DNA of 62,971 nt, filler included, from Reclinomonas americana ATCC 50394 (lineage: Eukaryota), in the NCBI GenBank assembly GCA_048213135.1. It is 6 parts of 4 records of this genome, joined end to end, with 100 filler letters (N's around TTAATTAATTAA, not from the genome) between each part and the next. Parts side by side here need not be neighbours in the genome. Positions count along the whole stretch, not along the records: positions 1 to 16,253 come from PS015395.1; positions 16,354 to 27,229 come from PS015396.1; 4 more parts are not named here. One strand, written 5' to 3'. The notes under the pieces are model-generated. The model did not search any database and was not told the DNA's origin. It worked only from the letters and a program-made list of their open reading frames with translations. Below, in pieces: positions 2,743 to 27,209 of the stretch (position 1 is its first letter; each line of letters begins with the position of its first letter). The translations under genes were made by a program, and so were the position numbers.

Positions 2743-5504
2743 ATGAGGTGTGCTGTGATGTTGTCAGGTGGCATTCTCTCTCCCACTCTCACTCGCGCTT
2801 CTGCTTTTGCTTCTTTGGCGGCAGTGCTCCTCGGATGAAAGCATGTGATATCGCAATGGAAGGCGATGTGAAGGCACTGCGCGAGTTGGTGGCGCGTGAG
2901 GGTGCACGGACTTTGCTGCAGAGAGAGGAGATGAGTGCTGGTGGTTGCTCGGCATTTTACTATGCCGCTCTCAGAGGCCATCTCTCGGTGTTGGAGTATT
3001 TGTGGGAGGAGAGTGGTGTCGGGCCACAACTCGCACACATGGTCAACGACCTTGGCTACACGCCTCTGATGGGGGCTGCCACCTATGGGCATCTGCAAGT
3101 GGTGGAGTGGTTGCTTGCCGATGAGCGACGATGTCCGCCAGAGATGGCGCGGGTGGTCAGCAATGACCGTGCGGAGTATCCGCAGTCCACGGTACTGCAT
3201 TATGCTGCAATGAGAGGACACGAAGCCGTGGTGCGACTGCTCGCCACTCGCTTCCCCGACCTCATTCCCGTGGTCAACAATGCGGGCAAGACGGCGGCTC
3301 AGTGGGCACGCGACGCGAGAAAGCAAGAAGTGGCCGACTTGCTTGACCACCTCGCTGTGCAGCCAGCACGACCACACCAACAACAACAACAGCAGGCGCG
3401 ATCCCCGCCTCCTGCAGGTATGACCTCTATTATGTCTGTTGGCATGATGTGTTCGTGCTCACGCCACCACCTGTGATTTGTCCTTGTGTGTGTCATTCCT
3501 GGCGAATATGATGCAGTGCCAGCACGCCAGGTGAGACGGAGAGTGCCACTCTAGATCTCTGCTTCTTGTTGCTCGCGAAACTCACTTCTCATATCCGTTC
3601 CGTGTCTCCCTCGCACTCTTGTAAATTGCAGTTGGCTGTTGATGATCCCACCGTCGCACGCCAGCTCGCCGACAAGGACGCACTCCTTGCGCAACTCCAG
3701 CGCGATCTGGCGGCAGCACAGCAGGAGCGAGATCAACAGCAGCGAGAGTGGAATCGACAGCGACGTGAGCACGAGGACGTCGTCGCCCAGTTGCAGCAAG
3801 ATAAGGCCCAGGAACAGCACAAGGTCGGCCAATTGCAGCAGGCGGTCGGTGAATGGCAGCGAGCTCATGCCAGCGAGCAGCAGAAGAATGCCCAATTGCA
3901 GCAAACTGTCATGCAGTGGCAGCAAGCTCATGGCCAACTGCAGGCTCAGCTGACTGCGGCTCTGCGCGACAAGGAGGACCTCGCGACGCAGCTGCAAGAA
4001 CGCAATCAACTCATCTCTCAGCTGCGACAGGATCTCCTCCTCACCCAAGGTCTGTCTCTTCCCCTCTGAGTGTCCAACGTCTTTCATACTCACCCATCTC
4101 TCTCTTCCCCTTCCCACCCTCCACAGTCGACACCGCCGTGCAGCGCTTCGAGTGGCCCGAGATCGTGCACGCCACCAATTCATTCTCACCCAGCCTCAAG
4201 GTCGGCGAGGGCGGCCAGGGTGCCGTCTTCATCTCCATCCTCCGCGAGATGCACGTGGCCATCAAGGTGCTCGACCCCAATGCACCGTGGACGATGGAGT
4301 CGTTTGAGAGTGAGGTGTGTGTATCTCCCTCTCTTCTGTTTCTTCTTTCTCCTCATCCTTCTTCCCCATCTCACAGGTGGCCACCCTCGGACGCCTACGT
4401 GACCGTCGCATTGTGCCTCTTGTCGGCTACTCGGTGGGCGACGACAAGGCACGCTGTCTCGTGTACAAGGCCCTGCAGTGCGTTCCATCTCTCTCCCTTT
4501 CTCCCCCTTTCTCCATAATCGTCTCACTGTGAAGCACACAGAGTCCCCAACCTGGAGGATCTGTTGCTGCTGCCACGCGCCGGTCGTGCACCACTCTCTC
4601 TCATACAGCGCGTGCAGATTGGTCTCGGACTGGCCGAGGCTGTGGTGTTCTTGCACAAGGTTTGTGCGATGTGGATACCATCCTCCACTCCCATTCACCG
4701 TCTCTGTCCCGAAGCACTCTGTCCTGCACTCTCTTCCTCTTTTCTCCTCGTCACTCTTTTGCTGTTCTTGTCTCTCCCACCCTCAGGTGTTCTCTCTCTG
4801 AATAGCCCTCGCTATCTGTTCGTTCCCGTTTTCTCTCCTCTCTCCTTGCCGCTCTCGTGCTGTTCGTGTCTCTTTAGTTCTCTCTCACTTTCTCCTTTTC
4901 TCGCTGCTGTGTTTTATGCTTTCTTCCTCATCTCACTCACCTCTCCTCGCAGAACAATGTGGTGCACCGCGACATCAAGCCCTCCAATGTTCTCCTCGAT
5001 CACCGTTTCGAGCCGTGTCTCGGTGACTTTGGCATTGCGCGGTCGATTGCAGATGGCAAGGTGTGTTTCCATTCAGTCCTTCTCTCTCTCTCTCTCTCTC
5101 TCTCGCTCTCTCTCTTCCACACTCCCTCACATTCTCTCATCTCGCAGACAACTACCGCCGCCGGCACTCTAGACTACATGGACCCACTGGCGTTGCGCGT
5201 GAGGACGCCGGATCCTGAACACGACGTGTACAGCATGGGTATCGTGCTGGTGCAGCTGGTCACTGGCAAGCCCGTGGCAACAGTGGTGGATTGGTCTGTG
5301 AGATGGGATCGTTCTGCTGCCTCGTTGCGCCCCATGGAGCTGGTGGATGGAGGAGCAGGGTGGACGCCGCGCATCGCCGAACCCATGTTTGAACTCGGCA
5401 TGCGCTGTATGAGCGTGCGACGCGATCGGCCAACCTCGCAGGAGGTGCTTGATGTGATGCGTGCGCTGCGTGAGGCTTGTGGGCAGTTCACGCTGGAACT
5501 GTGA
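2743..5504 (+). CDS. Ankyrin-repeat / coiled-coil / Pelle-IRAK(RLK)-like Ser/Thr kinase, copy 1
   Basis: Nine exons (2743-2747, 2825-3417, 3517-3530, 3632-4049, 4127-4314, 4377-~4478, ~4542-4659, 4953-5060, ~5148-5504) join in frame. Ankyrin motifs: GYTPLMGAATYGHLQVVEWLL and STVLHYAAMRGHEAVVRLL. A Gln-rich coiled coil follows. Kinase motifs: FEWPEIVHATNSFSPSLKVGEGGQGAVF, VAIK, HRDIKPSNVLLD, DFG, GTLDYMDP, DVYSMGIVL, RRDRP. Confidence 0.9.
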
Positions 5505-5818
5505 GATAAATACAGGCTGTGTCTGATTGTTCTTATGTGGGTTGTTGCAGCTTCATTGCGCGAGTCCACGAGTGTGACAGTGAGAACAGAGTGCTTGCGA
5601 GAACAGAATCCATGTTTTGCGGACGACGTGTGGATGAATTATCCTCAGGGATGTCGCGTAAAACCCACTTCCTCCTCCACAACAGCCTGGTACACATCAA
5701 GGCACTCACACTCCCCCACTCGCACCACACACTGCGCTTCCAATTCTCCGACGACTTCTCACAGAAACCCGGCACCTCTTGTCAGATCCACCACTTCCCG
5801 TCACTCACTCTCCTTCTC

Positions 5819-8800
5819 ATGAGCGCGGCCTCCGTCATCGCGCACCTCTTTGAGGAAACACACAAGCCGCCTCTCACCCTCACACTCTCCTCCACACGCT
5901 CACAAGAAGACCTCCTGAGCGAGTTACCTGCACACACACACATCTCCTCTCTGACTTTTTGTCACACTCTCTCTCTCACACACACGCACGCCCTCTCACA
6001 GCATCTGCCAGCACTGCGCCGACGCCTCCCCCCTCACTCTGACATTTGATGGAGCTCTCTTGGTGACTGACAATGAGCAAGCACAACAGGTCCGATCACT
6101 GAACGCTCTATTCCTTCTCTTCCCCCTCCTCACTCACTCTGTTCTCCCACACACAGGCCCTCTCGACCTACCCCCGCCTCTACGTCTTTTCCCGCGCGTT
6201 TCTCGAGCAAAAGAAACAGCATATCGCCAGCGACGTGGCGGACACGGCCATTGTAGTACCGCACACCAATCCACAAGTCGCGCGCGACGAGTTTCGCGAG
6301 TGGAGCAGTGTGGCCAGTGTGCGACTGGAGGCCGCCCGTGCGCTGATTGCCTTCGCGGTGCGTCGGAGCTCGGCAATTGAGGAAACGGTCGATTGTGGCA
6401 AGCAAATGGTCCGGTGGGCGAGTGAAGGACTGGCGGGAGGTCTGCGCTGGTTGACGGGCTTGTCGTTGACGCCGACGACACTGCATCAGGCGCAGGGGCA
6501 GTTGGCCGGGCAGAGGCAGTCGCTGGAGGATTTGGTGGCGCATTTGGAGGCGCAGATGGTGTCGGTGCAGGTGCGGGAGGCGTTGGCGGCGGTGGTGGAG
6601 GAGTGCTCGGTGCAGTTGGAGGTGGCGGGGGTGGAGGGTGTGGAGTTTGAGGCGAAGGGTGAGCAGGGGGAGGAGGGGGAGAAGGGGGAGAAGGGGGAAG
6701 GGATGAGGGAAATGGGGGGAAAAGTGGGAGAGCAGACAGTGAGGGGAGAGCTTATCGAGGAACTGCTGATCGAAGAGGCAGAGAGGGCGAGAGCAGAGTG
6801 AAGAAGCAGAGCACAGCGAGGGGTGGAGAACAGAGCAGATAGGGCGTCTTTCCTCGCTTGCATTCTCCGCGCTGTCTCTTCTGTTGCTTTGCCGGCTTGA
6901 GTGTCCTCTTTTGCCTGCGTTTCATTCGCTCCGCGCGTCTCCCTTGGCTCTCTCTGGAGCGAGGGAGGAGAGCAAAGCGAGGCGAGGGGATATAAGAGCA
7001 GAGCGAAGAACAGCTGGTCGACGAGGTTGGGCGAGGAGGGAATGCAGGAGAGGGAGGAAGGAGAACAGAGCGAAGGGTGGAGAGCAGAGCTCTTGCAATC
7101 CTCCCCCTTGCTCTCATTCATCAAACCTTGCCCCTCTCTTTTCTTCTTTTGCTTCCCTGGCTTGCTTGTCCTCTTTTGCCACATGCTTCCCTTGACTCTC
7201 TCTCTCTCTGAAGCGCAGAGTTGGGAGAGCCAGATCGAGATGGAAGAGCCAGAGCGATAGGAGAGAGTGGAGGAAGGGCGGAGAACAGAGCAGTTGGAGC
7301 ACTTTCTTCACTTGCTATCCTCTCGTTCTTCCCTTGCGCTTTCTCCTCATTTGCTTCCCTGGTTTGTATGTTCTCTTTTACCTGCGTCTCATTCGCTCCG
7401 TGCACTTCTTCATCTCATTTAAAGCGAGAGTGGGAGAGCAGAGCGAGGGGTGGAGTTCAGGGAGAAGAGAAGAGCAGACAGGGCACCTATCTTCTCATAC
7501 TATCCTCCGCGCTTTCTCTTGTTTTTTGCTTTTTCCCCTGCGTCTCATGCACTCCGTGCGCTTCTCCTTCTCATTTTCTGGAGCTAGGGAGGCAGCGTAG
7601 AAGAGAGAGAGAGAGAGCAAGAGCGAGGATGGAGCTGGATTCTCACCCCTCTTGATCAGACACACTAGCGGAACGCCGGGCGCAGCTGATGGAGAGCGCG
7701 TTTCATCGATTCTCACACACGTTGCCGCGCGTCGAGCAGCACATGGCGGAGGCCGTGTGCTGGTTGGGTGAGTTGCAGGCTGCCGACTGCCAGATCGCCG
7801 AGTTGTGCAAGCTGGCCAGTGCGGCGAAGCATTTCGCCGCTCGGCTGGTCGACGCGCGTTGCGTGATGAGGAGGAGGCGAGCTTGTGCACTCGCCATGTC
7901 ACTCATTTTTTCGAATTGCAGGCGTGTGCGAGCTGCTGCCGGGGATGGTGGAGCAGAAGCGTCGGTATGAGGAGGCGTGCGAGCGGATGGCGGAGACGTG
8001 CTTGGACCCGGTGCTCGACCTGGCGGACCAGGAGGTTGCGCGGAGGCGGGTGTTTGCGGAGGAGTTTCCGCTGGGGCCGTTCTTGTGTCCCGAGATGGCC
8101 AAGCCGGTGGCCACGTTCGAGGTAGGCAAAAAAAAAGGGAAAGGGGCGAGAGGGAAGGGCAAGAGGGAAAGGGGTGAGAGTAAACGGGAAGAGAGGGCGA
8201 GGGGAGAGACTGAAAGGGGTGAGAAGAATGAAAGAAGAGGGAACGGGATGAGAGGAGAGAGGAAGGGGAATGGGTGAGAGGGAAGGAAAAGAAAAGGAAA
8301 GGGTGGGAACGGGAGGAGAGGAGTGAATGAAGAGGGAACGGGATGACAGCGAAAGAGGAAGGGACAGGGATACGAAGAAAGGAATGGGGCGGATGGAGGC
8401 AGTGAACGGAAGGGGCATGGTGGGGGAAAGAAAGGAGGAGAGAGAAATGAGCAGAGAGGGACAGGAGCGAGACAAAGGGGAGGAGAAACAGGAGTGAAGT
8501 GGGCACGAGGAGAAATAAATGGAGAAGAGTGCGTCTGTGTGAGAGAGAGAGAACATGCTGGATGAGACAACCATTTTTTCAATATGTGCTGATTTGCTTC
8601 TTTTGCGCAGCTTCGGCGTGTGGGTGCGTACTGGTGACTATGGCAGTGTATGGTGGCAGCAGGCACTTAAATACTTTGTGTGCAGGTGTCAAGTGGTTCG
8701 GCATTGCTGCGCCGAAGGATGTGCGGGAGGTGAGGACAAGAGAGGGAAGGGAAAGGGGAAAATGGACAGCGATGAGAAAGAGAGTGAATGAGAGACAAAG

Positions 8801-11800
8801 AGACAAGGGACGAGGTGATGAAGGGGGAGAGAGAAGACCTGAGACGGGAAACATGACCCAAAGGGGGACGAGCCGATCACATGGGAGCCTCTCGGGAACC
8901 TCAGCTGACTCGTTTCGCCTCATTTGCCTCATTCTCCTCTCGTTCTCCTCTCGTTTTCACTCGTCTCCTCTCGCTTAATCTTGTCTCCTCTCGGAGGACA
9001 AGGGTTGAGGAGTGAGGGTTGAGAGGCGAGGGTTGAGGGCTGAAAAATAGAGGGTAGGAGGACAAGGGTTGAGAGGCGAGGGTCGAGGGTTGAAGAATTG
9101 AGGGTTGGAGGACAAGGGTTGAGGAGTGAGGGTTGAGGGTTGAAGAATTGAGGGTTTAGTGAGAGTCGAGGGTTGAAGGACGAGGGGTGAGGGTTGAAAA
9201 AACGAAGGGTTGGAGGACAAGGGTTGAGAGGCGAGGGTCGAGGGTTGAAAAACGGAGGGTTGACGGTCGAGGGTTGGAGGGCAAGGGTTGAGGGGCGAGG
9301 GCTGAGGGTTGAAAAATGCAGGGTTGGAGACAAGGGTTGAGAGGCGAGGGTTAAGGGCCGAAGAATTGAGGGTTGAGGAGCGAGTGTCGAGGAGCGAGGG
9401 TTGAGGGTTGAAAATGGAGGGTTGGAGACAAGGGTTGATCGAGCGTTGAAATATGCGGGGGTTTCTCTCGATTTCTATCGCTTCCTCTCGTTTCCTCTCG
9501 TTTGCACTTGTCCCCTTCCATTTTCTCTCGTCTCCTCCTGTCTCGCCTCCTCTCTTATTTTCCTTCGTCTCTTCTCGTCTCACTCATCTCTTCCCTGCAG
9601 CCGCTGAAGCAAGATGCGTGTACCTTTGTGGACGGCCTGCCCGACCGAGTGCCTGTGCTGCGCCAACGGTGCGTGTGGATCTTCTCTCGCTTTGTAGGAT
9701 TGCTGTAGACTCACTTCTCCACCGCAGCGTGAATGAGCTGGCGGAGGCGTTGATGCACACACGAGATGAAGCGGCCATGGTTTGCTTACTTCGCTGTGCC
9801 TACGCCTGTGCAAAGAACTCACCCTCGCCCTCTCCTGCCAGCTGAAACGCGAAAGCGAGCAGCTGCACCGCGAGTTGCGACCCTTCTTCCCCCCACGCTG
9901 TAATTCCTCCAACCTCACCCTTGCGCACGCAGCAACGACGAGTTGGCACGCGCGGCGGACCAGTTGCGCCTCACACAAGAGGCGATGATGCCTCGCATTG
10001 AGGCCCGTCAGCTGGACGAGCAGAATCTCAGAATTGTGCGTGACTTTGCTTGCGAGGGACAGGATTCGCTGATAACTGACTTGCGCAACAGGCGGAGCGC
10101 AAAAATGTGATTCTCGGCGACAAGTGCGTGGATGCTTGCTATTCATGGAATTACTGGTGATCTCACTCTGTGGTGAATTGTTACAGGGTCGAACTTCTTG
10201 AGCGACAGGTTCGCGGAGTTCGCTGGCGATCAGTCTCCTCGTTGTCACTCACCTTCCAGTGCAGATTCAAGTCACTGCTGAGCAGCATCAGAAGCGGTGA
10301 GTGTTGTGGTCGTGGTTGGATTTTCAGCCATCTGTTCTCACTTCTCCTGCATACAGTGTTTTCGATTTGACCTCAGAACTTGCCACGCTTCGCTCCGATA
10401 ATGCGCAACTCAAGCAGGTGGGTGCAAGGGAAAGAGGGAAGGGAGTGGAGGGCAGCAGAGAGAGGTAAATGGGACAGAAGCGAAACGGGGAGGAGAAGTG
10501 GGACGGAGAAGGGGTGGAGATGGACAAGTGTTCTTCTTCCGTGTTTCCTGCCTCTCTCCAGCTTCCATTCACGGCTCTCTTGCACTGTGGCCTTACAGTC
10601 CGCTTGCACTTTCTCCCCCTCTGAACACCGCAATGTTGTTCCATCGCATGGCTGATGCGAACCGATAATTTGAGGACACAATTGTCTCCTATTCTGCCCT
10701 CTTCTTTCACTGCATCTCTCCAGGCTTCCTTCCCCTGCTCCCAATTCTCTCTCTGCCGTCTGTCTCCCTCGCTGACCGTACATCCCAATTACGCAGCGTG
10801 CCAATGCCATCGAAGTCGCCCATGCATCGTTGCGTTTGCCAGTGTGTGGCAGCTATCTTTGTTCGGCCTCTGACAGTCTTGTATTTCGTGCAGATCCGCC
10901 GCCAACGAGCGCCATTTGGCAGTGGTGCGTGTCTCGCCCTCTTGCTGCTCTCATCTTGCACTCATTCTGCTTCTCCCGTGCAGCGCGTGCGCGATCTCGA
11001 AGAGCAGTTGCGAACATCTGCTGTGCCTGCTGGTTGATAGTCGGTGATTAACCCTCTCCCCTCACGCAGGCTGGAGCCGTTGCGCGAGGAGAGCACTCGT
11101 CGTGCACGCGACTTCATTGAGCTGTCGAGCCGCGCGACCGAGAACCAGCGACTGGCGGAGTCACAGGCGCGCGAGCTGACGGAGCTGCGAGCTGACTTGA
11201 CTGAGAAGAATCGACTGGTGGACGAGGTGCGTCTCCATCGTGGTCGTTGATGCTGCGTTGGTGTTACTGACAGTCATTTCCATTCAGCTGCATGCCAGCA
11301 ATCAGCTTCTTTCGTTGCGTTTTTGATGCACTGGCTTTTGGAGTAACTGTGTTGCTCATTGTTTTTCACAGTGCCGAATCTGTGAGTGTGGGGGTCGCGG
11401 ACGTTTCTCGTGATCATTACTCACCATCCTTCATCACAGGGGGTGAAGCAAGCGCTGGAGGAAGAGTTGCGAATGCTCCTTGCGAGTTGAAGTAGATGAG
11501 GTGTTCACCATCTCCTCGTGCAGAATCTACAGACTTCGCGGTGAGATCCGCTCGCTGCGGAGGGCCAGCACGACTGTCGCCGCAGATGCAGGCGTTGTTG
11601 ATGTCGGGTGCGTATGTCGGGACTGTGAGGGTGAAGGGCATATGTGCTGATTGCTTCACCGCAGAGAAATCGCCAACTTGCGCGCCCAGCTGGCCGAGGT
11701 TACTCGCGAGAAGACGAGACTCAGGTGCGTGGTGTTTGCATAAAGGTGTCTCGGATTGTGCTGACTCTCTTCTACCGTCTCGCAGTGAGGAGGCTGCACG

Positions 11801-14800
11801 GGTGAGATCTGCGCATTGTTGGAGTTCTGTCGATGTGCTTCTCACTATTCCTGTTGCGCAGCTCCGCCAAGCGGCAACCGACAGCAGCGCAGTGAGTAGA
11901 GCACACTACAACCGTCACACTCCCTGCTGCTGACCAATTCTCTTTCTGTCTACTGTCTTCGCTCTTCTCCTCTCTCTCGCTCTTCTCCTCCCTCTCTCGC
12001 TCTTCTCCTCCCTCTCTCGCTCTTCTCCTCCGTCTCTCGCACTTCTCCTCCGTCCTCTGTCTCTCGTTCTTCTCCTCCCTCTCTGTGCACCTTTCTCTCT
12101 TCTCCTCCGTCTCTCGCTCTTCTCTTCCGTCTCTCGCTCTTCTCTTCCGTCTCTCGCTCTTCTCCTTGCCCACTCGCTCTTCTCCTCTGTCTCTCGCTCT
12201 TCTCTTCCGTCTATCGCTCTTTTCCTTCCTTTTTCCGCTCTTCTCCTCCGTCTCTCTTCTTATCCGTCTCTCGCTCTTGTCCTCCGACTCTCGCTCTTCT
12301 CCTCCCTCTCTCGCTTTGCTCCACCCTCTCTCGCTTTGCTCCTCCCTCTCTCTCTCTCTTCTTTTCCCTCTCTCGCTCTCCTCTTCCGTCTCTAGTTCTT
12401 GTCCTCCATCTCTCGCTCTTCTCCTACATCTCTTGCTATTCTCCTCCGTCTCTCGGTCTTCTCCTCCGTCTCTTGCTCTTCTCCTCCGTCTCTTGCTCTT
12501 CTCCGTCTCTCTCTCTCTTCTCTTCCGTCTCTTGCTCTTCTCCTCTATCTCTTGCTCTTCTCCTCTGTCTCTCTCTTGTCCTCCGTCTCTCGCTCTTCTC
12601 CTCCGTCTCTTGCTCTTCTCCTCCATCTCTCGCTCTCCTCTTCCGTCTCTTGCTCTCTTGCTCTTCTCCTCCGTCTCTCGCTCTTCTCCTCCGTCTCTTG
12701 CTCTTCTCCTCCGTCTCTCGCTCTTCTCCTCCGTCTCTCGCTCTTCTCCTCCCTCTCTCGCTCTTCTCCTCTGTCTCTCGCTCTTCTCCTCCGTCTCTCG
12801 CTCTCCTCTTCCGTCTCTTGCTCTTCTCCCCCGTCTCTTGCTCTTCTCTTCCGTCTCTTGCTCTTCTCTTCCGTCTCTCTCTTCTCCTCCGTCTCTCGCT
12901 CTTCTCCGTCTCTCTCTCTCTCTCTGTGCACCTCCCTCTCTCGCTCTTCTACTCCGTCTCTCTCTCTTCTCCTCCCTCTCTCGCTGTTCTCCTCCCCCTC
13001 TCGCTCTTCTCTTCTCACTCTCTCCCTCTTGGTATCTGCAGCAACGCGACTCTCGGCAGCGGCGCGAGATGGAAGCCGCGGAGGAGCTGCGTGCACTGCG
13101 CCAGCGATTCGACGAGTATCAAGCCGAGGTGAGTAATATGTGTGTCAGCCACGCGCCAACAACAGTGCTGACTCTTTCACGCAGGTGAGCGAAACGATGG
13201 CCTCGCGCACCAACGCCGACGTGGCTGCAATTGTTCGCATCCACCAAGAACAGGTGCGGCCGCAAGTGTTGCCCTCTTGCAGGAAGACGCTCACATCTTT
13301 GGTGCACAGTTTGAGGAGGAGCTGCGTCTCGTGAAGGAAGCCAATGACGAGCGCATGCAGCGCAAGGAGGCGGAGGTGAGGGCAACGTGCAAAGGTGATT
13401 TCTGCACTTGTGCTCATTGCTGCTGCAGTTTGGCGCGTGGAAAGACACGTATCGCAACCAGTTGGCCGAGGCCATGGCATCGTTGCAAGAGGCGCAGCAG
13501 GAGCTGGCGGCTCGGCAGCGGTCGAGTGGGGCAGCGGTGAGTGAATGGCGAAGGGTGGCCTAAGGGGGGTGAAGGGAAGGCAGAAGCGACAGAAAGTGTG
13601 TCGAATTCTGGCGGTATTTTGCAGCAGTGATTGTGGAGGAGTGTGGGCCGGCGATTCTTTCGTCTTGTTTTGCCTTCGTCGACTGAGCATCTCCTTGCGT
13701 GCAGGAGGCCGTGATGCAGCAAAAGCTGGAGGCGGAGGAGGCCAAGGAGCTGTTGACTCGCGAGGTCAGTTTTTCGAAGATTGAGTGCGCAACGAGGCGA
13801 GTGTCTCACTCTCCTCGCAGCTCGCCGACCTGCGACGCATGTACGGCGAGGCGGAGGACCGATATGCTCGGTTGTCGATTGAGGTGAGAGTTGACACTTG
13901 GTTTGCTTCTCGTGCCTCGCTGACAAATTTGTGCAGTTGCAGCAGGCTCGTGCGGCAGTGAGCGAGGCCGGTCGCAGTCAGCCAGCTGCTGAGAAGTCAC
14001 AGGTGCGTCTTTATCAGTATTTTCTTGAGCATGCGTGCGTGGGCGTTTGTGTGGGCGAGTGTGTGGTGTTTATATGTCTGGTTTGCCGTTTGTGTTTGTG
14101 GTGTCTTTGTTGAGGCTTTGCCTGCTGTTCACTCCAGTTCTCTCCTGCTCTCTGAGTTCTCTCCTGTTCTCTCTTGTTCTCTCTTGTTCTTTCCTGTTCT
14201 TTCCTGTTCTTTCCTGTTCTCTCTTGTTCTCCTGTTCTCTCCTGTTCTCTCCTATTCTCTGAGTTCTCTCCTGTTCTCTCTTGTTCTCTCCTGTTCACTT
14301 CTGTTCTCTCCTGTTCTCTCCTGTTCTCTCCTGTTCTCTCCTGGTCTCTCTATAATCGCTCCTCTTCTCTCTGTTCTTTCTTGTTCTCTGTTGTTCTTTG
14401 AGCGTGACACTTAAAGGCGCCCTTACCAATTGCGTGAAAGCAGGCTGGTGCAGACGTTGGCGGTGCACGTTGCGTTTCCCTGGCCTCACCTTCCCCCTCC
14501 CCCTCCAATTCTCATTTTTCCTGCTTCCCCTTGTACTCTCTCTCTCCCCGCAGTGGCCGAGCGCGCGCGCTACGCCGAGGACGCACTGGCTCGCGTGTTG
14601 TACACGTCGGGGCTGGTGTCGTCGAGCCAGCGCGTGCCGCAGGAGGGATTGGATGCGAGTTGGCGGGCGCGCATCGAGCGGTGCCTGTGCATTGTGCGGG
14701 ATGCGGTGGACATGCAGCAGACGTTGATATTGGTGGGGACAGAGTTGGGCGTGTTGAGGGTGGTGGAGGGTGGGAGGGTGGTGGATGCGTCGGCCACGTT

Positions 14801-16166: not shown

Positions 16167-16253
16167 CTGCGGAGGAGGGGAAGAGGGGGGGGAAGAGGGG
16201 GGGGAATGGGGGAGAAGGGGGAGGACAGGGGGAAGGGGGGGGAGGGGGATGAG

Positions 16254-16353: not shown

Positions 16354-16667
16354 CGGATACACACGAACACTCAGGATGAGAGTGAAAGAAGACAGCATTC
16401 AGTGCTTCTTCTCGATGGCACTGCACTCTGGTTGTATGCAGGCGTGCGTACAGGTGTGTGCCAAGAGAGAGAAAGAGAGAGAGAGAAAAATTCAGCCCTT
16501 CTCATGTTCTACACCTAAGAGCGAGCGAGATGGTGAGCGAACGACAAGCCCAGATGATTGGAGAGCAACCAGTCGAGTCGGAGAGAGCGAGAGAGGGAGA
16601 GGCAGAATGCTTCAGCGCCAAAGAAGTGTGTGGACGATGAAGCCGTTCCCCTCCACCTTCTCCTCAT

Positions 16668-19600
16668 TCACCGCACCTTGAGCAATCGCTGGAACTCCGT
16701 CAGCGACATTCGCCGCACGTTGCTGCGCTGCAGCGCCGACACCAGAGGCGGTAGTTGACAGCTCTCCTTTAGTTGATCGGAGATGTGTTGTGCCGCCAGC
16801 ATCGACGCGTGCAGTGACTCCTTGTCGCCGCGTGTTCTTCGGAAGCGTGATGACTGGGCAAGCGAAAACATGAGTGAGAGGCACGACAAAGGGGCAACGA
16901 AGGGAGATGGACGGAAATTGATTAATCAACAGATGACTCGAGGAGAGAGAGATATTGTAGATAATGACCGATCGACACTGTGAGAGACTGTGCACGCACG
17001 GAAAGGGAGAACAAAGAGACGATCAGAGTGACAAAAATATGATGAATCACGCACGGAATAGGAGCACAGAGACACAGGCACCAGAGTGAGCAAAGAAGAG
17101 ACAATACAAATGAAGCACACATGGAAAGGGAGCACACAGCACAGGACAATCAGAGTAAGCAAAGAAGAGACAATGCATAAAATGACGCACACACGGAAAG
17201 GGAGCACACGATGCAGGCACGCATGAACGATCAGAGTGAGCAAAGAAGAGACAATAAAATGAATCACACACGGAAAATGAGCACACGACACAGGTACGCA
17301 TGAACAATCAGAGTGAGCAAAGAAGAGACGAACATGAATGAAGCACACACGAAAAAAGAGCAGACCAGGCACGCATGAACAATAAGAGCGAGAAAAGAAG
17401 AGACAATAAAATGAATCTCACACGGTAATGGAGCACACGATGCAGGCACGCACGAACGATTGGAGAGAGCACAGAAGAGACAAAACATAAAATGCACACA
17501 TGGAAAGGGAGCACACAACACAGGACAATCAGAGTGAGCAAAGAAGAGACAATGCATAAAATGAAGCACACACGGAAAAAGAGCTCAGAGACACAGGCAC
17601 CAGAGTGAGAAGAAACAACAAAATGAAGCACACACAGAAAGGGAGCACACGATGCAGGTACACATGTAAGATCAGAGTAAGACAAGAAGTGAAGCACACG
17701 CAGAAAAGGAGCACACGATGCAGGACAATCAGAGTGAGAAAAGAAGTGACAACAATCATAAAATGTAGCACACACAGAAAGGAACACACGATGCAGGCAC
17801 GCATGAGCGATCAGAGTGAGCAAAGAAGAGACAAACCCATAAAAATGAAGCACACGCGGAAAAGGTGCACACACCACAGCTAAGCATGAATAATCAGAGT
17901 GAGAAAGTAGTGAGAAAAAGAAAGCCCTGTTCCTCTCATCCCCACCCCCTTTCCCTCCAGAATCACGCACCACGCCGTCACCTTCCGCCACCTCCTCCTC
18001 CCCACCATCCGCCGCCTCGTCCGGCTCGCGGAACGCCACAGCTCGGACCGCCGGCGTATCACGTGGCGGTGAGATGCGCACGGCGGGAATCAGCAGCGCG
18101 GGTGGTGCGGGCGAGGCCGTGACAAACGCAGGCACGCCGGTTTCGAAATCCGCCAGACCGACGGCGGTGGGATAGCGATCAAACGAGTAGTCCGACAGGG
18201 AGTTGACGGGCGAGTGGCGACCTGCCGCGAAGGACAAGGGATCAGCAAGGCACCGTCACCACTTTCCCGCACGCAAGCTCACCGTTTCCCACTGTCGATA
18301 CGGGGGAGTGGCGACCTGCGACATAGGATAGGGATTAGTAAGGCATCATCACCTCCTTCTCAAACGACCTCACCGTTCCCCACTGCCGACACGGGGGAGT
18401 GGCGACCTGCGACACAATAAGACAAGGATCAGCACGGCCCCTTCCCCTCACCCCGCCCCTTACGTGAGCTCACCGCTTCCCACTGCAGAGACGGGCGAGT
18501 GGCGACCTGCGCGACAAAAAAAGACAAGGGATCAGAGCAATGCACTGTCACCGCCCTTCCCCTCAAAGCTCACCATTCCCCATCGCCGAGAGGGGCGGCG
18601 ACACGGAGCGCAGGTACCGCGAGATGGGCAGATCCTCGACGTCCGGCTCGGGCGACGGCTGCAGGCGACCGCTGGTGCGCCGCAACGACTGCAGCAGTCC
18701 GCGCGTCTCGGCCATTTCACGATCGAGCGTCTGCATGCGCTGGCGCACGAGCATCTTGGCGGGCGAGTCGGTGGCGGCCACATTGGAGAACGCCAGCGCG
18801 AGCATCACTTGCGCCTGCTCCATCTCCTGCAGCGCCTCCTCCAGCCGCAGCTCCATGGCCGGCGACGACGGCAACACGGGGACCGCCGCCATCAGTGTGC
18901 TAGAGGGGGAGCTGTGCGGGATGACGGGGGGCGGCAGCGGGGAGGGCGATGAGAGCGCGCGGGCCAGCACGCTGGTGTAGGGCGATGATGAGTCGGTGGT
19001 GGTGGTGATGCGACGAGGGGGCGAGGGGGAGAGGCGGGAGTCGCTTGCCGGTGATCCACCGGAGGAGGAGGGGGGTGAGGAGGAGAGTGGGGAGGAAGAG
19101 GAGAAGGGTCCGGTGGCGTAGGTGGCCATGAGGCGTTCGACGTGGCTGGCGAGGGCGGGGGGAGGGGTGAAGGTGGCGGGGAGGGGGGCGGGAGGGGGTG
19201 GAGGGGTGGATTCGGTAGGTCTTCGGGTGGAGGTGGTGGTGGTGGAGGAGGGCTGTGAAGGGGGAGAAGGGGAGGGTGAGGGGAATGAAGGGGGAGGTGA
19301 GAGGGACAGAGGGGAAAGGCAGGGGAAAGGGAAANNNNNNNNNNNNNNNNNNNNNNNNNNNNNNNNNNNNNNNNNNNNNNNNNNNNNNNNNNNNNNNNNN
19401 NNNNNNNNNNNNNNNNNNNNNNNNNNNNNNNNNNNNNNNNNNNNNNNNNNNNNNNNNNNNNNNNNNNNNNNNNNNNNNNNNNNNNNNNNNNNNNNNNNNN
19501 NNNNNNNNNNNNNNNNNNNNNNNNNNNNNNNNNNNNNNNNNNNNNNNNNNNNNNNNNNNNNNNNNNNNNNNNNNNNNNNNNNNNNNNNNNNNNNNNNNNN

Positions 19601-20597
19601 NNNNNNNNNNNNNNNNNNNNNNNNNNNNNNNNNNNNNNNNNNNNNNNNNNNNNNNNNNNNNNNNNNNNNNNNNNNNNNNNNNNNNNNNNNNNNNNNNNNN
19701 NNNNNNNNNNNNNNNNNNNNNNNNNNNNNNNNNNNNNNNNNNNNNNNNNNNNNNNNNNNNNNNNNNNNNNNNNNNNNNNNNNNNNNNNNNNNNNNNNNNN
19801 NNNNNNNNNNNNNNNNNNNNNNNNNNNNNNNNNNNNNNNNNNNNNNNNNNNNNNNNNNNNNNNNNNNNNNNNNNNNNNNNNNNNNNNNNNNNNNNNNNNN
19901 NNNNNNNNNNNNNNNNNNNNNNNNNNNNNNNNNNNNNNNNNNNNNNNNNNNNNNNNNNNNNNNNNNNNNNNNNNNNNNNNNNNNNNNNNNNNNNNNNNNN
20001 NNNNNNNNNNNNNNNNNNNNNNNNNNNNNNNNNNNNNNNNNNNNNNNNNNNNNNNNNNNNNNNNNNNNNNNNNNNNNNNNNNNNNNNNNNNNNNNNNNNN
20101 NNNNNNNNNNNNNNNNNNNNNNNNNNNNNNNNNNNNNNNNNNNNNNNNNNNNNNNNNNNNNNNNNNNNNNNNNNNNNNNNNNNNNNNNNNNNNNNNNNNN
20201 NNNNNNNNNNNNNNNNNNNNNNNNNNNNNNNNNNNNNNNNNNNNCCACACACACACACCTCCTTCCTCTTCTGCGGACTCAACGCCGACCGCAACCACTT
20301 GGGCACCGCAATCCTCTCCTCTCCATCCTCACCACCACCCTCCCCATCCTCCTCGCCTCCTCCTCCACCACTGCCATTCTCAACTCCGCGACCACTGTTG
20401 GTCAGCAAGCGCGCGCGAAAGAGCTCGTGGTGATGCAGAGAGGGAACAGTGGATGAAGGTGGAGGTGGGGGAGAGGGGTTGGTGGCGGTGCGAGGTGACC
20501 GTTGTGGGGAGTGGCGAGGGGAGGAGCGGCGAGGTTGGGCGCGTTGAGTGGTGGTGGTGAGTGTGGAGGAGAAGTAGCGAGGTGAGCGGCTGCTCAT
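16668..20597 (-). CDS. Uncharacterised Ser/Pro-rich, largely disordered protein with short coiled coil and RHSP microexon array (spans an N gap)
   Basis: First exon MSSRSPRYFSS...LSPQKRKE|gt. A large exon contains MELRLEEALQEMEQAQV...MQTLDREMAETRGLLQSL. Three 33-nt exons and the exon GRHSPVNSLSDYSFDRY follow. The probable last exon is ...RRMSLTEFQRLLKVR*. Confidence 0.55.
16975..17920. repeat. Intronic ~60-90 bp degenerate tandem repeat
   Basis: CAGAGTGAGCAAAGAAGAGACAAT...AAATGAAGCACACACGGAAAGGGAGCACACGATGCAGG repeated roughly ten or more times. Confidence 0.9.
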
Positions 20598-20819
20598 GGT
20601 GGTTGTTGAGTCGGTGGTGACAGTGACAGTGGGACCGGGGACTTGTGGCAGTCGCGTGTTGGTTCAGGTTGAGAGCAGAAGTGGCGAGTAGAGTGGCTGC
20701 TTTAGGCTTCAGAGTGCTGGATCTGGCTAGCTTTGCGACCATGTCTTGTGAAGTCGAAGCAACTTCGCGATCGCTGCGGCTTTCGCTGCGATATTTTCGC
20801 GGTGGCCATAAGAGGGGAA

Positions 20820-21025
20820 GGGTTGGTGCGAGGTGACCGTTGCGGGGAGTGGCGAGGGGAGGAGCGGCGAGGTTGGGCGCGTTGAGTGGTGGAAAGTGTG
20901 GAGGAGAAGTAGCGAGGTGAGCGGCTGCTCATGGTGGTCGTCGTTGAGTGGTGACAGTGGTGTGGGACCGGGACTTGTGGCAGTCGCGTGTTGGTTCTCG
21001 TTGGGTGTAGAAGTGGCGAGTAGAG
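20820..21025 (-). repeat. Local duplicate of the 5' end of the neighbouring gene (copy of ~20476-20693)
   Basis: Second MSSRSPRYFSSTL...QRAQPRRSSPRHSPQRSPRT ORF (20702-20932) with shared upstream sequence, diverging to a stop after the shared part. Confidence 0.85.
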
Positions 21026-21128
21026 GAAGACAAGCTGCTGTCAAGGGTCCGCAACGCGATCATGAAGAAACATGCAAAGCGATCGATTCAGCTTATGCAC
21101 AGGGAACTTGTAAACTTCTGTTGTATCG

Positions 21129-24100
21129 CTACCAAAGTTCCAGTGTGAACTGCCCACACGCCTCACGCAGTGCACGCATCGCATCGAGCACCTCATGCGA
21201 GGTTGGCCGATCACGTCGCAAGCTTATGCAGCGCATGCCGAGCTCGAACATGGGTTCGGCGATGCGCGGTGTCCACTCTGCTCCACGATCGACAAGCTCC
21301 ATGGGACGCAGCGAGGCTGGCGAGTCGTCCCACTCCACGGACCACTCCACTACTGTGGCCTCAGACTTGCCAGTCACCAGCTGCACCAGTACCGCACCCA
21401 TGCTGTACACGTCGTGCTTGGGGTGAGGACGGCGCACACGCATCGCCAGTGGGTCCATGTAATCCAGCGTGCCGGCGGCGGTCGTCGTCTGTGAAACGGG
21501 AGAAGGTGAGACAGCGTAGAAGAGAGAGGAGAACGGAGCCAACAAACCTTGCCATCTGCAATCGACCGCGCAATGCCAAAGTCACCGAGACATGGCTCGA
21601 AGCGGTGATCAAGCAGCACATTGGAGGGCTTGATGTCGCGGTGTACAACATTATTCTGTGAGCGGAGATAAGTGAGGTGAGGCACGATGTATGAAACACG
21701 ACAGCAAGGAGAGAATAAAGCCGAATGGAGAGGAGAGTACACGAGAAGCAGCGGAGACATCAACAGCGAAGACTGACGAGGAGAAGAGAGAGAGAGAGAG
21801 AGCACACAGACAGCAAGGGTGCCTCTACAGGGAGAGGAAACGAAGCGAGGCGTCCACATCGGTCAGACCTTGTGCAAGAACGCCACGGCCTCGGCCAATC
21901 CGAGACCAATCTGCACACGCTGCACGACCGTGAGTGGTGCATGGCCGACGCGTGGCAGCAGAAGCAGATCTTCCAAGTTGGGAACTCTGTGCGCTTTCAC
22001 AGTGAGATGATGATTGAGAAAGAGAAGAGGAGAGAGTGACGAGTAACCCACTGCAGGGCCTTGTACACGAGACAGCGTGCCTTGTCGTCGCCCACTGAGT
22101 AACCGATGAGGGGCACGATGCGACGGTCGCGTAGGCGTCCGAGAGTGGCCACCTGCGAGATGGAGAAGAAGGATGAGGAGAGAGAGAAGAAACTGGAGAG
22201 GGGAGAGACATACAGACCTCACTCTCAAACGACTCCATCGTCCACGGTGCCTCGGGGTCGAGCACCTTGATGGCCACGTGCATCTCGCGTAACAAAGTGA
22301 TGAACACGGCACCCTGGCCACCCTCGCCGACCTTGAGGCGTGGCGAGAAGGAGTCGGTGGCGTGCACGATCTCGGGCCACTCGAAGCGCTGCACGGCGGT
22401 GTCGACTGTGGAGGGCGTGATGGGAAGAGAGAGAGATGGGTGAGAATGAAGGAGACAGAAATACTGGGAAAATAAGGAAGAAGAAAATGAGGTCATGAGA
22501 CGGACCTTGGGTGAGGAGGAGGTCCTGTCGCAACTGGGAGACGAGTTGATTGCTTTCGTGCAGCTGCGCGGCGAGATCGTCCTTGTCACGCAGGGCCTCA
22601 GTCAGCTGAGCGGTGATTTGATCTCGCTCGGCTTTCAGTTGGGAAATCTCTTGCTCATCCTCAGCATGAGCTCGCTGCCAGTCAGCGTTGGCTCGCTGCA
22701 AATGCGCACTTCGCTGTTGCTCTTCAGACAGACCACGTCGTAGCTCTGCGTTCGCAAGCTGCAGCTCCGTCCGCTGCCGGTCGAACTCTCTCTTCTGCTG
22801 CTCTCGCTCCTGCTGTGACGCCACGAGATCGCGCTGAAGTTGGATGACGAGCGCTTCTCTCTCGACGAGCTGGCGTGCCAATGCAGGATCATCACCAACC
22901 ACCTGCACAGGAGGCCGATGTGACACGAGAGAGCAAGGTGTGCATAGAGTGAACTCAATGATCGGTACTGACGCGGAGACTGTCGATCTCAGTCTCACCT
23001 GGCGTGCTGGCGCTAAAAGTATCGCGGAGCAATACACAACGACACAAAACACGGTTGAGTGAGAGCAGGAATTAAATGGATCACACAAGTTAACGGACAG
23101 GGAGACCACACCTGCTGGACGAAGAGGCTTTTCCATCAGAGGCTGTTGTCGGGGTGGCGATGGTTCCAAAGCGAGGCGATCGAGCAACTCGGCCACCTGA
23201 ACATGTCCTCTTCCACGTGCCCACTGCGCCGCGGTCTTGCCCTTCTTGTTGACGACGGGAATAAGGTCGGGATAGCGAGTGGCGAGGAGTCGCACAATCG
23301 CTTCGTGGCCATTCTTGGCAGAGACATGCAGTGCAGTGGACTGTGGAAACATGTCACGGTCATCGGTAACCGCCCGCACCGTCTGTGGCGGACATCGTCG
23401 CTTGTCGGCAAGCAACCACTGCACCACTTGCAGATGGCCAAAGCAAGCGGCCCCAATCAACGGTGTTTGCCCATAGTCGTTGGCCAACTGCGCGAGTTGC
23501 GGTCCAATGCCAGTCTCCTCCCACAAATACTCCAACACGGAGAGACGGCCCTGATGAGCGCCACATACAAATGCAGAGCGGCCGTACTTATCCATCTCCT
23601 CTCTCTTCAGCAGCGTCTGCGCACCCTCGCGGGTCACTAATTCGCGCAGCGCCACCACATCTCCTTCCGTTGCCATCTCCCATGCTTTCTTTTGACGGCG
23701 CTGGCTTGCAGCACTGCAACAAAGAAGTGCGGGTGAGGTTTTAGAGGCCAAAATAATTAACTGTGAGTCGATGTGAAACTCGCACACAATCCCACCTGTC
23801 GATCATTCGGCGTGCTGCTGCGAGTGCCTGTGGTCGAGCCACACAACGTGAGTGCCAAACAGACACGTGCCAACTCCGGTCAACAGGTACAACTAAGTCT
23901 CACCCGTTGTACTGCGCATAAGGCACACCAATAGAGCGAAGAATAAATTAGTCAGTTATACAACCACCAGAGCACGAGGAAACAACAAAACTTGATGGCG
24001 GCGGAGTAGGGGGAACAAGAAATCGTTGCGAAGCGAGGCGATCGAGTAAATCGGCCACTTTCCGCTTGTTATTGATACGTGCCAACTGAGCTGCTGTCTT

Positions 24101-24676
24101 GCCCATCTTGTTGACCATGGGAATGAGGTCGGGAAAGCGAGTGGCGAGGAGTCGCACAATGGCTTCGTGGCCTTCCATGGCAGCATAATGCAGTGCAGTG
24201 GACTGCGGGCCATGGGCAAGGTCATTGGAGACCGCCCGCACCATCTCCGGCGGACATCGTCGCTCATCGGCAAGCAACCACTCCACCACTTGCAGTTGCC
24301 CATTGTTGGCAGCAGTCAGCAGTGGCGTAAAGCCAATGTCGTCGACCATGTGTGCGAGTTGTGGCCCTACGCCACTCTCCGCCCACAAATACTCCAACAC
24401 AGAGAGATGGCCTCCAAGAGCGGCACAGTCGAAAACAGAGCAGCCATCCTCATCCATCTCCTCTCTCTTCAGCAGAGTGCGTACGCCCTCACGCGCCACC
24501 AATTTGCGCAGTGCCTTCACATCGCCTTCCTCTGCCATCTCCCATGCCTTCTTCCGTCGGGAGCGAGGAACACTGTGAGCAACGCAAACACATGACGAAT
24601 GACAATCACGACGAATGTGAGCATGCATTCTGACAATAAACCATCCTGAAATAGACACTCTTGCAACACGCCTCAT
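21129..24676 (-). CDS. Ankyrin / coiled-coil / Pelle-IRAK-like kinase, copy 2, with two tandem ankyrin blocks
   Basis: Exons 24676-24672 (GC donor), 24572-23992, 23911-23904 (8 nt), 23827-23796, 23713-23112 and 23012-22999 join in frame, followed by coiled-coil and kinase exons colinear with copy 1; ends ...GQFTLELW*. Confidence 0.85.
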
Positions 24677-25200
24677 GTTCTCGATTCCAACACAATAACG
24701 GCAATGGCTCGCACAACCAACTTTATCGCTGCCGATCTAGCAGCACACTCAGCACCTCCTCTTCCCAGCGCTTGCGGTTTGCGTATGAATTGGTTGTGGA
24801 TGGAGTTTTTCCACGTGTCCTGGACGCGTAAATGCGACTAATGGACGACGTCGTCATTTTGTGACGTCGGATGCTTGCAAAGCCCCCAAACTGAAGCATC
24901 GATTCACTTGGTGACGCAAGACGCACCACGTCCACCCAGGAGAACACCAACTGTCAAAGAGTGTGCCAGCAAAGTTGGTTAGCACGTGCACATGATCCAG
25001 CTCCGAAACTCGCAGCGCGCCTGTTGCAGGTGCGCCACTTCCACGTATCAGGCACGCATGCTCATCACGGCCATCACGCGCCATGCCAACGCATCAACAC
25101 TCGATGTCGGACTGTGCACTCTGATCGCGCAGTTGAATCATTCAAACGCTGAACACCCAGCAGCAAGACTGCCATTGTCATCACTCACCACAGTTTCATC

Positions 25201-27209
25201 TCAGAGTTCCATCGTAAACTGTCCACAAGCCTCACGCAGAGCACGCATCCCATCGAGCACCTCCTGCGAGGTTGGTCGATCGCGTCGCACACTCATGCAT
25301 CGCATGCCGAGCTCAAACATCGGTTCGGCGATGCGCGGCGTCCACTCAGCTCCACGATCGACCAGCTCATGGGACGCAACGAGGCTGGCGAGTCGTCCCA
25401 TTCCACAGACCAATCCACCACAGTGGCCACCGGCTTGGCAGTGACCAGCTGCACCAGCACCACACCCACGCTATACACGTCGTGCTTGGGGTGTGGACGA
25501 CGCACGCGCATCGCCAGTGGGTCCATGTAGTCCAGTGTGCCGGCGGCGGTCGTGGTCTGCGAGATGCGAGAGGGTAAGAGAGAGGAAGGGAGAAGGAGAA
25601 GTGAAACCACAAACCTTGCCATCAGCAATCGACCGAGCAATGCCAAAGTCACCGAGACAAGGCTCGAATCGGTGATCGAGAAGCACGTTGGAGGGCTTGA
25701 TGTCGCGGTGCACCACCTCATTCTGCGAGCGGAGGTAAGTGAGGCGAGGCACGGCGCATGAAACCACAACTGGAGAACGCATAATGCTTGCAGTGACAAA
25801 ACAGCAAAAACAAGGAGAGAAGAGAGATTACGGGCAACAGAAGAGAGCAAAAGTGAGCAAGAGGGAGAATGAGCGAGAGAGAAGAGTGCGCGCGGAGGTG
25901 GAGTACACGAGAGACAGAGAAAAGTAACACAAAAAGAGTGACAAAGAGAGAAGTAAGATAGAGTGCACCCACAAAGAGCAAGAAAAAGGAGTGAGGAAGG
26001 ACAACACGAGAATCTAGGAGATGCAAGATGAACAGCAGAGTGAAAAAGGACAGAAGAGCGAAGAACGCGAAGGCATCGTGCACCTGCGACTGACTCAGAG
26101 GGATAATTTGACATGCACAAAGTCAGCCACATTGCACAAACCTTGTGCAAGAACACCACGGCCTCGGCCACTCCGAGACCAATCTGCACGCGCTGTTTGA
26201 CAGAGAGTGGTGCATGACCGGCACGCGGAAGTAGCAATAGATCCTCCAGGTTGGGAACTCTGTGTGGTTGCACAGTGAGAAGATGATGGAGGTAAGGGAG
26301 AAGGAGAGAAATGGACACGCACTGCAGGGCCTTGTACACGAGACAGCGTGTCTTCTCGACACCCACCGAATAACCGACAAGAGGCACAATGCGACGGTCG
26401 CGCAGGCGTCCGAGGGTGGCCACCTGCGAGGATGATAGGAATGACGAGGAGATTGGGAAGAAACAGGAGAGGGAGAGAGACACAGACCTCACTCTCAAAC
26501 GACTCCATTGTCCACGGTGCCTCGGGATCGAGCACCTTGATGGCCACGTGCATCTCGCGAAGCAGAGTGATGAAGACGGCACCCTGGCCACCTTCGCCGA
26601 CCTTGAGGCGTGGGGAGAAGGTATCGGTGGCTTGTACGATCTCGGGCCACTCGAAGCGCTGCACAGCAGTGTCGACTGCGGAGGTGTGTGATGGAAGAGT
26701 GAGACATTGATAAAAACGAAGGACAAAAAGCACCGAAAGGTAGAGACGGCAAGACATATACCTTGAATAAGGAGGAGGTCCTGTCGCAGCTGGGAGACGA
26801 GTTGATTGCTTCCTTGCAGCTGCGTGGTGAGATCGTCTTTCTCAAGCAGAGCTGCAGTCAGTTGAGAGGCAATTTGATCCCGCTCCGCTCGGAGTTGGGC
26901 ATTCCTCTGCTGTTCCTCGGCCACGCTGTGCTGCAGCTCCGCATTGGCTTGCTGACATTCGGTGACTGTCCACTGCAGTCGCGCGATCTCCTGCTGCCGG
27001 TCACCGTGAGCTTGCTGCAACTCAGCATTGGCTTGCTGCACATGGGCGACAATGGCCTCGTTCTCCCGTCGCTGTCGATCCCACGCTCGCTGCTGCTCCT
27101 CTCGCTCAAGCTGCGCTGCCGCAAGATCGCGCTGGAGTTGGGCGACGAGAGCATCCTTCTCGCCGAGCTGGCGTGCCCATGCGGCGAGATCATCACCAAC
27201 AGCCTGCAA
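25201..27209 (-). pseudogene. Ankyrin-kinase family copy 3 (coiled coil + kinase visible; 5' part lost at scaffold end) with 1-nt frameshift in last exon
   Basis: Exon structure is colinear with copies 1 and 2. CCC ATG AGC here versus CCC ATG GAG in both paralogues (~25368) shifts the frame. This could be a sequencing error rather than true pseudogenisation. Confidence 0.6.

Follow-up and report, generated by a model that had tools for sequence, protein, structure and literature searches.

A probable family of soluble ankyrin, coiled-coil and RLK/Pelle-type kinase proteins in Reclinomonas americana

A window of 62,971 nucleotides (nt) from Reclinomonas americana ATCC 50394 (assembly GCA_048213135.1), which is the whole stretch of DNA analysed here, contains three related kinase genes, referred to as g1, g2 and g3, and a fourth, separate ankyrin exon, referred to as ANK-X. 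Our working model, which we consider probable, is that they form a lineage-specific family, duplicated in tandem, of soluble proteins in which an ankyrin head is followed by a coiled coil of about 140 residues and by an RD kinase of the U-box-kinase branch of RLK/Pelle. The window is made up of at least six scaffold parts joined by artificial spacers with stops in all six frames (N44-TTAATTAATTAA-N44), and also contains nine ordinary N gaps. Since the spacers are artificial, distances and synteny across them are meaningless. The gene family sits on both scaffold A (1-16253) and scaffold B (16354-27229), which are separated by the spacer at 16254-16353, and a second spacer at 27230-27329 closes scaffold B and truncates g3.

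Gene models and paralogy

Gene models were obtained by reading the DNA in three frames and checking the translations, with splicing deduced from the sequence alone. The first gene, g1, has eight exons at 2835-5504 on the plus strand and encodes 628 amino acids (aa). Exon 1 (2835-3417) carries the start codon and an ankyrin-repeat domain of approximately four repeats and a cap (Pfam Ank_2, E 2.1e-20), and ends in phase 1. It is followed by a microexon of 14 nt (3517-3530) with AG/GT flanks that encodes a PARQ linker and is kept in g2; the microexon is taken to be real in both genes because the reading frame is lost without it. Exon 3 (3632-4049) encodes a putative coiled coil of 139 aa, rich in Gln, Leu and Ala. 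Exons 4 to 8 (4127-4314, 4377-4477, 4542-4659, 4953-5060 and 5148-5504) encode an N-terminal helix motif and a complete kinase domain, as judged from Pfam Pkinase matches on exons 7 and 8, matches to solved structures in the PDB and motif positions, with the stop codon at 5502-5504.

The second gene, g2, lies on the minus strand at 23676-21129 and encodes 616 aa in eight exons (23676-23112, 23012-22999, 22902-22506, 22405-22218, 22152-22052, 21986-21869, 21655-21548 and 21488-21129). All seven intron positions and phases are common to g1 and g2, and in both genes the reading frame is intact over the eight exons and all splice sites are present. The third gene, g3, also on the minus strand, was recovered as a coil and kinase paralogue (27203-26762, 26675-26488, 26423-26323, 26259-26142, 25722-25615 and 25556-25201) whose last five introns are the same as those of g1 and g2. 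The scaffold end at 27229 falls within the intron preceding its coil exon, so that the ankyrin part of g3 is not observable. Exons 4 to 7 are equal in length in the three genes (188, 101, 118 and 108 nt), the introns are all GT-AG, measure 58-419 nt and are rich in pyrimidines (C+T is 74% in g1), and the similarity between copies is far above chance (tblastn E 1e-44 to 1e-125). The last exon of g3 has a 1-nt deletion between 25369 and 25368 (ATGGAG to AT-GAG), beyond which the codons stay conserved in the shifted frame; the cause is a recent frameshift or else a mistake in the assembly.

An earlier note on this DNA, made from the sequence alone, had described three paralogues on two scaffolds with common intron positions and a common architecture. 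The intron positions and the two scaffolds agree with our models; the ankyrin part could be seen in only two of the three copies, g3 being cut. The start given there for the first gene, 2743, has to be replaced by the coding start at 2835, and the interval 21129-24676, treated as one copy, contains a complete g2 and also the separate ANK-X. The note had found neither a signal peptide nor a transmembrane segment, and we likewise found none in g1 or g2, where the highest 19-residue Kyte-Doolittle means are 1.53 and 1.33, respectively. The g1 peak lies in the kinase core, and that of g2 in the ankyrin domain, the following g2 value (1.28) coming from the kinase core. Both proteins have polar N-termini, and no conserved exon was found upstream of the ATGs, the similarity between copies beginning at the start codons. 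The ankyrin-coil-kinase proteins are thus predicted to be soluble.

ANK-X is an open frame at 23992-24538 on the minus strand, with a GT donor that agrees in phase with exon 1 of g1 and g2, 74% identity to the g1 ankyrin domain and a Pfam ankyrin match like that of exon 1. It appears to be followed by a shortened, 8-nt counterpart of the microexon (23904-23911, minus strand) and then by GTGAGAC; this counterpart would preserve the frame (1+8 = 9 nt, versus 1+14 in g1 and g2). No coil or kinase belonging to ANK-X was found before the start of g2, 316 nt downstream. ANK-X may serve as an alternative first exon and so supply g2 with a second ankyrin head, because its phase-1 donor could join the g2 microexon in frame. 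A second in-frame route would lead from ANK-X via its own 8-nt remnant onto the g2 coil exon. An arrangement of ANK-X and g2 exon 1 in tandem in one protein was rejected, as the phases do not match and the product would be out of frame.

Divergence between the copies was measured for each domain as amino acid identity, the synonymous substitution rate (dS) and the ratio of nonsynonymous to synonymous rates (dN/dS). The kinase domains are 90-92% identical, with dN/dS of 0.10-0.15 at dS of 0.39-0.43. For the coil the corresponding values are 55-63%, 0.34-0.43 and 0.71-0.77, and for the ankyrin domain 64-74%, 0.36-0.49 and 0.38-0.67. Intron 6 is 293, 213 and 419 nt long in the three copies. The possibility, raised in the earlier note, that the copies are haplotigs of one gene was ruled out by dS values of about 0.4-0.8 together with the differing intron lengths, which show the copies to be old duplicates and paralogues.

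Purifying selection acts on at least g1 and g2, and the kinase is under strong constraint. These results bear on whether the locus is a decaying, unexpressed cluster of pseudogenes, as the frameshift in g3, the lack of a coil and kinase after ANK-X and the want of any homologue above approximately 45% identity among 1.84 billion library representatives might suggest. We consider this highly unlikely, since the g1 and g2 frames are intact over eight exons, the kinase dN/dS is 0.10-0.15 at dS of about 0.4, and the deletion in g3 may have arisen in assembly.

Identity of the kinase

The catalytic motifs of g1 and g2 are complete, with a GEGGQG glycine loop, VAIK, the alpha-C Glu, HRDIKPSN and DFG, and the kinase is apparently an active RD Ser/Thr kinase. 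Alignment by eye places the Tyr of LVYKAL (g1 residues 429-434) at the gatekeeper position; a Tyr gatekeeper is taken here, after the IRAK4 structure literature, as a criterion for the RLK/Pelle (IRAK) family. The stretch FEWPEIVHATNSFS at g1 residues 346-359 fits the pattern 'FSYEELEKAT[D/N]NF[S/D]' at F1, E5, I6, A9, T10, N11, F13 and S14, and HMMER aligns it to IRAK1 and LYK3. In the excerpted text of PMC10916322, this 14-residue N-terminal helix or ST motif is described as common to plant RLKs, IRAK1/3/4 and other RLK/Pelle kinases, and as not present in Raf and Roco kinases.

Searches of solved structures were run exon by exon against the PDB. At E<=10 the N-lobe exon gave 17 rows, 12 of them named IRAK1, LYK3, CERK1, LysM receptor kinase, lectin kinase, BRI1 or BIK1 (IRAK1 at E 1.2e-5), the others being two entries named 'Protein kinase', one named 'superfamily', YabT and a designed repeat protein. 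All four rows for exon 5 were BRI1, the single row for exon 6 was IRAK1, and the best 22 rows for exon 8 were IRAK4, followed by Aurora A and RKS1. With the C-terminal half as query, the 59 rows at E<=1e-8 comprised 26 of IRAK4, 14 of Aurora A, 9 of PknB, 8 of plant receptor kinases and 2 of other bacterial kinases. RIPK, Raf, MLK, LRRK and ILK were represented by no row in any exon-level PDB listing, and the PDB contains many chains of RIPK, Raf, MLK, LRRK2 and ILK. The proposal of the earlier note that the kinase carries the RLK/Pelle/IRAK signature holds on the marker motif and the exon-level matches, and the tree described below is in line with it; by these comparisons its nearest solved kinases are IRAKs and plant RLKs.

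A library of 1.84 billion representatives was searched with the C-terminal half, reading in frame through the 87-nt intron, and yielded 51965 kinases at E<=0.001. No match in this library exceeded approximately 45% identity per domain, except for one repetitive plant fragment; the window's own proteins were not in the searched libraries. At the head of the raw ranking stood plant, Chloroflexi (one bacterium) and Tritrichomonas proteins that contain more than one kinase domain. Because such proteins inflate the ranking, 150 hits were re-scored with the spliced g1 kinase by their best single domain, which brought plant U-box kinases to the top. PUB51 of Tarenaya scored 146 bits at 36% identity, and the identities were 34-36% over approximately 295 aa for Tarenaya PUB51, Diphasiastrum and Rhynchospora, and 29% for Colocasia. 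As a lead only, the ESM Atlas placed the kinase piece with Streptophyta kinase clusters at 0.97. A separate search for relatives of the last kinase exon gave no homologous proteins at E<=1e-5, and 74 pattern matches to this exon in JGI metagenomes included none that was confirmed.

A tree was built from 59 rows and 309 columns, consisting of the 50 of the 150 hits that matched 235 or more residues of the g1 kinase as a single stretch, six outgroups added by hand and the three window kinases. The rows had thus been pre-selected by likeness to the window C-lobe, and the tree was without IRAK/Pelle, RIPK, Raf, MLK, LRRK or ILK references. In a careful IQ-TREE run the g1-g3 kinases grouped together with support of 100/100 on a stem of 1.33, and were joined at 99/95 to five rows, namely four U-box kinases and a Chara protein (P0098, P0148, P0146, P0047 and P0040). 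Within this tree the combined group fell inside a clade of all 45 plant-type rows at 99/95, only 15 of which carry a streptophyte name. Outside this clade fell the bacterial or metagenomic rows, three from Tritrichomonas, one each from an oomycete and a nematode, and one that bears an SH2 domain. An approximately unbiased (AU) test, of a grouping that had been chosen after the tree was seen, did not reject a tree in which the 45 plant-type rows form a clade that excludes g1-g3 (p 0.42, log-likelihood difference 1.7). The tree and the AU test together indicate that the kinase lies either in the plant RLK radiation beside the U-box kinases, or just outside that radiation.

It could be argued that the kinase is another tyrosine kinase-like (TKL) kinase or a convergent look-alike, and that its placement among plant kinases is a long-branch or sampling artefact. 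The long stem and the AU test, which leaves exclusion from the plant rows unrejected, are consistent with this, as are the non-discriminating C-lobe scores and a tree that lacks other TKL references. The N-terminal helix/ST motif and N-lobe, however, match only IRAK and RLK entries, the five exon-level searches agree, and PUB51 has a closely similar motif junction, so we regard a different TKL origin as very improbable.

Coiled coil, ankyrin heads and proposed mechanism

The composition of exon 3 (25% Gln, 14% Leu and 14% Ala) and its heptad pattern suggest a coiled coil, and no Pfam family was found on this exon. Three indels distinguish the coil exons of the three genes (3632-4049, 22506-22902 and 26762-27203), and each is exactly 7 residues long, which matches the expectation for a coiled coil that keeps its register. 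Two g1 coil chains were predicted to form a parallel, in-register dimer over their whole length, with an interface score (ipSAE) of 0.58 versus 0.00 for the best control, a partner confidence score (pLDDT) of 90 and at least 97% agreement in contacts between runs. The mark used for this prediction was reached in a microbial calibration by 21 of 30 proteins solved as one-chain pairs and by none of 23 single chains, and in a eukaryote calibration by 17 of 29 pairs and none of 30 single chains, with only one of seven reaching it among those without an older solved relative. The model supports, but does not show, dimerisation of the coil.

The ankyrin comparison covered three copies, g1, g2 and ANK-X. 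The six positions that designed ankyrin proteins randomise in each repeat correspond to the binding face, and these were used as the canonical binding positions. Variation was found at 18 of these 24 positions and at 38 of the 118 others (one-sided Fisher p 1.3e-4). The dN/dS was 0.94-1.08 at binding positions and 0.31-0.41 elsewhere. Variation on this face fits ankyrin heads that have different partners, and equally exposed positions that are simply little constrained. Positive selection on the ankyrin face was not shown by these values, as dN/dS does not exceed 1 and is about the neutral rate. A protein search with the ankyrin exon gave 15 relatives, all generic ankyrin proteins, none of which had a kinase.

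In the working model, the coil would hold two chains in a parallel, in-register dimer, so that two kinase domains lie side by side. The ankyrin head, with a binding face that differs from copy to copy, would bind a copy-specific protein partner, and partner binding or clustering would set trans-autophosphorylation of the Thr-rich activation loop (GKTTTAAGT) and hence the output. The same logic of trans-autophosphorylation applies to IRAK4.

Several observations weigh against this model. The dN/dS near 1 on the ankyrin face fits relaxed constraint equally well, and in any ankyrin repeat the framework would be expected to be the less variable part. The coil prediction may reflect likeness to solved coiled coils generally. 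In all copies the Glu of the APE motif is replaced by Leu (MDP-L), and the C-lobe alone is not discriminating because PknB and Aurora A score like IRAK4. The stem of the window kinases is long, the AU test does not reject their exclusion from the plant-type rows, and those rows were pre-selected in a tree that lacks the other references. The splicing and expression of the genes are read from DNA, g3 is frameshifted and ANK-X is truncated.

The same proteins could instead be ordinary signalling kinases, in which the ankyrin domain provides a fixed means of docking or localisation (to the cytoskeleton, flagellum or a membrane protein, for example) and the copies are sub-functionalised housekeeping paralogues. 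Fusions of ankyrin repeats with TKL kinases are common as scaffolded kinases such as ILK and RIPK4, the overall ankyrin dN/dS of 0.36-0.49 indicates constraint, and the Chara relative has WD40 repeats instead, which implies that repeat modules are freely swapped on the kinase. Ankyrin-repeat TKLs are also reported in oomycetes in the excerpted text of PMC3019232. The differences between copies, however, fall on the binding face, which is less expected with one fixed partner, and we hold this alternative to be possible but doubtful.

A further alternative, in line with the cytosolic receptor family proposed in the earlier note, is that the proteins are receptors resembling pattern-recognition receptors, with variable ankyrin heads that detect ligands from microbes or viruses and a dimeric IRAK-type kinase that sets off defence. 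The note also took the family to be under expansion; of the four copies, one is frameshifted and another truncated. To our knowledge the plant U-box kinases, which are the nearest relatives, are not established immune receptors. TIR, Death and NB-ARC domains were absent from a Pfam scan of 79 further open reading frames (ORFs) of the window, and the dN/dS, from a comparison of three ankyrin copies, is not above 1. On the other side are the tandem duplicates with features of birth and death (the g3 frameshift and the ANK-X remnant), the concentration of variation on the ankyrin binding face at dN/dS of about 1, and a kinase family that serves immunity in plants and animals, according to excerpts of PMC10868138 and PMC3019232. 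On balance a receptor role of this kind appears unlikely.

The most far-reaching form of this idea, which we regard as quite unlikely, is that Reclinomonas has an intracellular receptor-kinase family of its own, in which interchangeable ankyrin heads recognise non-self or danger ligands and the parallel coil dimer fires the IRAK-type kinase, as an independent, ankyrin-based counterpart of Myddosome/RLCK signalling. RLK/Pelle kinases have a central place in the innate immunity of plants and of animals, and their role beyond both groups is little known. If it is true that the ankyrin heads sense ligands, the family would offer a simple, soluble model for kinase switching by dimerisation.

Elsewhere in the window, degenerate arrays built on the telomere-repeat-like heptamer AGGGTTG / CAACCCT, with periods of approximately 36-113 nt, were found at 9001-9438 (scaffold A) and, in opposite orientation, at 29400-30141 (scaffold C). 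A 1-kb array of a 20-nt CT-rich unit lies at 11955-13011 (approximately 53 copies, 81% matches) and has long Ser/Leu or Arg/Glu open frames on both strands; it is probably non-coding. Exons of ordinary eukaryotic genes were recognised by Pfam matches to MYCBP-associated protein at 28254-28787 (plus strand), to TAF5 (TFIID_NTD2 and WD40) at 52453-55253 (plus strand) and to the Golgi pH regulator (GPHR)/ABA_GPCR family at 57406-58250 (minus strand). The presence of a MYCBPAP-like exon hints at a flagellate stage. In the ESM Atlas, again as a lead only, a piece of the TAF5-like gene fell with TFIID_NTD2 clusters, most of them from Streptophyta, and a search for homologous proteins with a GPHR-like ORF gave none. 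An Rfam scan at gathering thresholds and a tRNA scan of the window found nothing.

Comparison with known systems

The nearest kinase domains to those of the window are in plant and charophyte U-box kinases, built in the order Usp, coiled coil, kinase and U-box, such as PUB51 (XP_010546140.1) and a Diphasiastrum protein (KAJ7568772.1), which are sister to them at 99/95. These kinases are cytosolic, as the window proteins are predicted to be, and in PUB51 a coiled coil stands directly before an F-x-W-x-E-I-V-x-A-T-x-S-F-S...LKVG junction that closely matches the window genes. The coil-kinase module is homologous to that of the plant and charophyte U-box kinase branch of RLK/Pelle. The heads and tails differ, however. 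The full Diphasiastrum isoform (P0155) consists of Usp, kinase and U-box, whereas the window genes carry ankyrin repeats in the place of Usp (Pfam gives Ank_2 and no Usp on exon 1), and g1, g2 and g3 are without a U-box and stop 5-6 residues past the kinase. A Pfam scan of the ORF at 5510-6046, downstream of g1, found no U-box there. U-box kinases of this type correspond to class RLCK-IX of RLK/Pelle. Coil-like RLCK-IXb motifs are listed in the excerpted text of PMC10916322.

The same U-box-kinase clade includes a protein of Chara braunii (GBG83112.1, P0040), an algal case in which the kinase is fused to a repeat-type interaction domain. It differs from the window proteins in that its kinase is flanked on either side by WD40 propellers, and is 2152 aa in length, with no U-box and a long branch in the tree. 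The window family and this WD40 fusion suggest an early swapping of repeat modules on the kinase.

Among the IRAK and Pelle kinases, IRAK1 and IRAK4 were the best solved matches to the N-lobe, exon 6 and exon 8. IRAK4 has LVY at the gatekeeper and is activated by dimer-driven trans-autophosphorylation. Where IRAK and Pelle carry a death domain, the window proteins have ankyrin repeats and a coil; no death domain was found, as the Pfam matches on exon 1 were all to ankyrin families and the coil had none, and the tree was without IRAKs. The N-terminal helix and TxxF motif of IRAK1 and IRAK4 are common with the window kinase, going by the excerpted PMC10916322.

Phytophthora infestans likewise has IRAK-family kinases in a eukaryote that is neither plant nor animal, and in the excerpts of PMC3019232 all five of them are predicted inactive, four with a transmembrane segment. 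The window proteins, in contrast, are predicted to be soluble and keep all catalytic residues. Further occurrences of IRAK-type kinases in oomycetes (PMC3019232), and of RLK/Pelle-type kinases in glaucophytes and chlorophytes (PMC10868138) and in apicomplexans (mentioned in PMC10916322), are given in the excerpted texts of these papers.

Other kinases with ankyrin repeats belong to different families. Such fusions with TKL kinases are common, and include ILK and plant ILK1, RIPK4, ANKK1 and TNNI3K. These kinases are Raf-like, RIPK or oomycete-specific and differ from the window proteins also in having no long coil between the domains, and none of them was found among the exon-level PDB rows. 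The Phytophthora OS1 TKL is an oomycete example, with 15 ankyrin repeats in the excerpted account of PMC3019232.

Searches of proteins, metagenomes and the literature, the last with poor coverage of subscription papers, did not find ankyrin repeats, a coil and an RLK/Pelle-type kinase in one protein. The earlier note had regarded this combination as undescribed, which is in agreement with our protein and paper searches for the triple fusion, but the coil and kinase are known together from plant U-box kinases. Because that module already exists in plants, only the ankyrin head and the absence of the U-box are new, and the novelty, at the level of annotation, would be an ankyrin head on a known coil-kinase module. 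The family appears to combine the coil-kinase module of plants with another kind of recognition head, in a further eukaryote.

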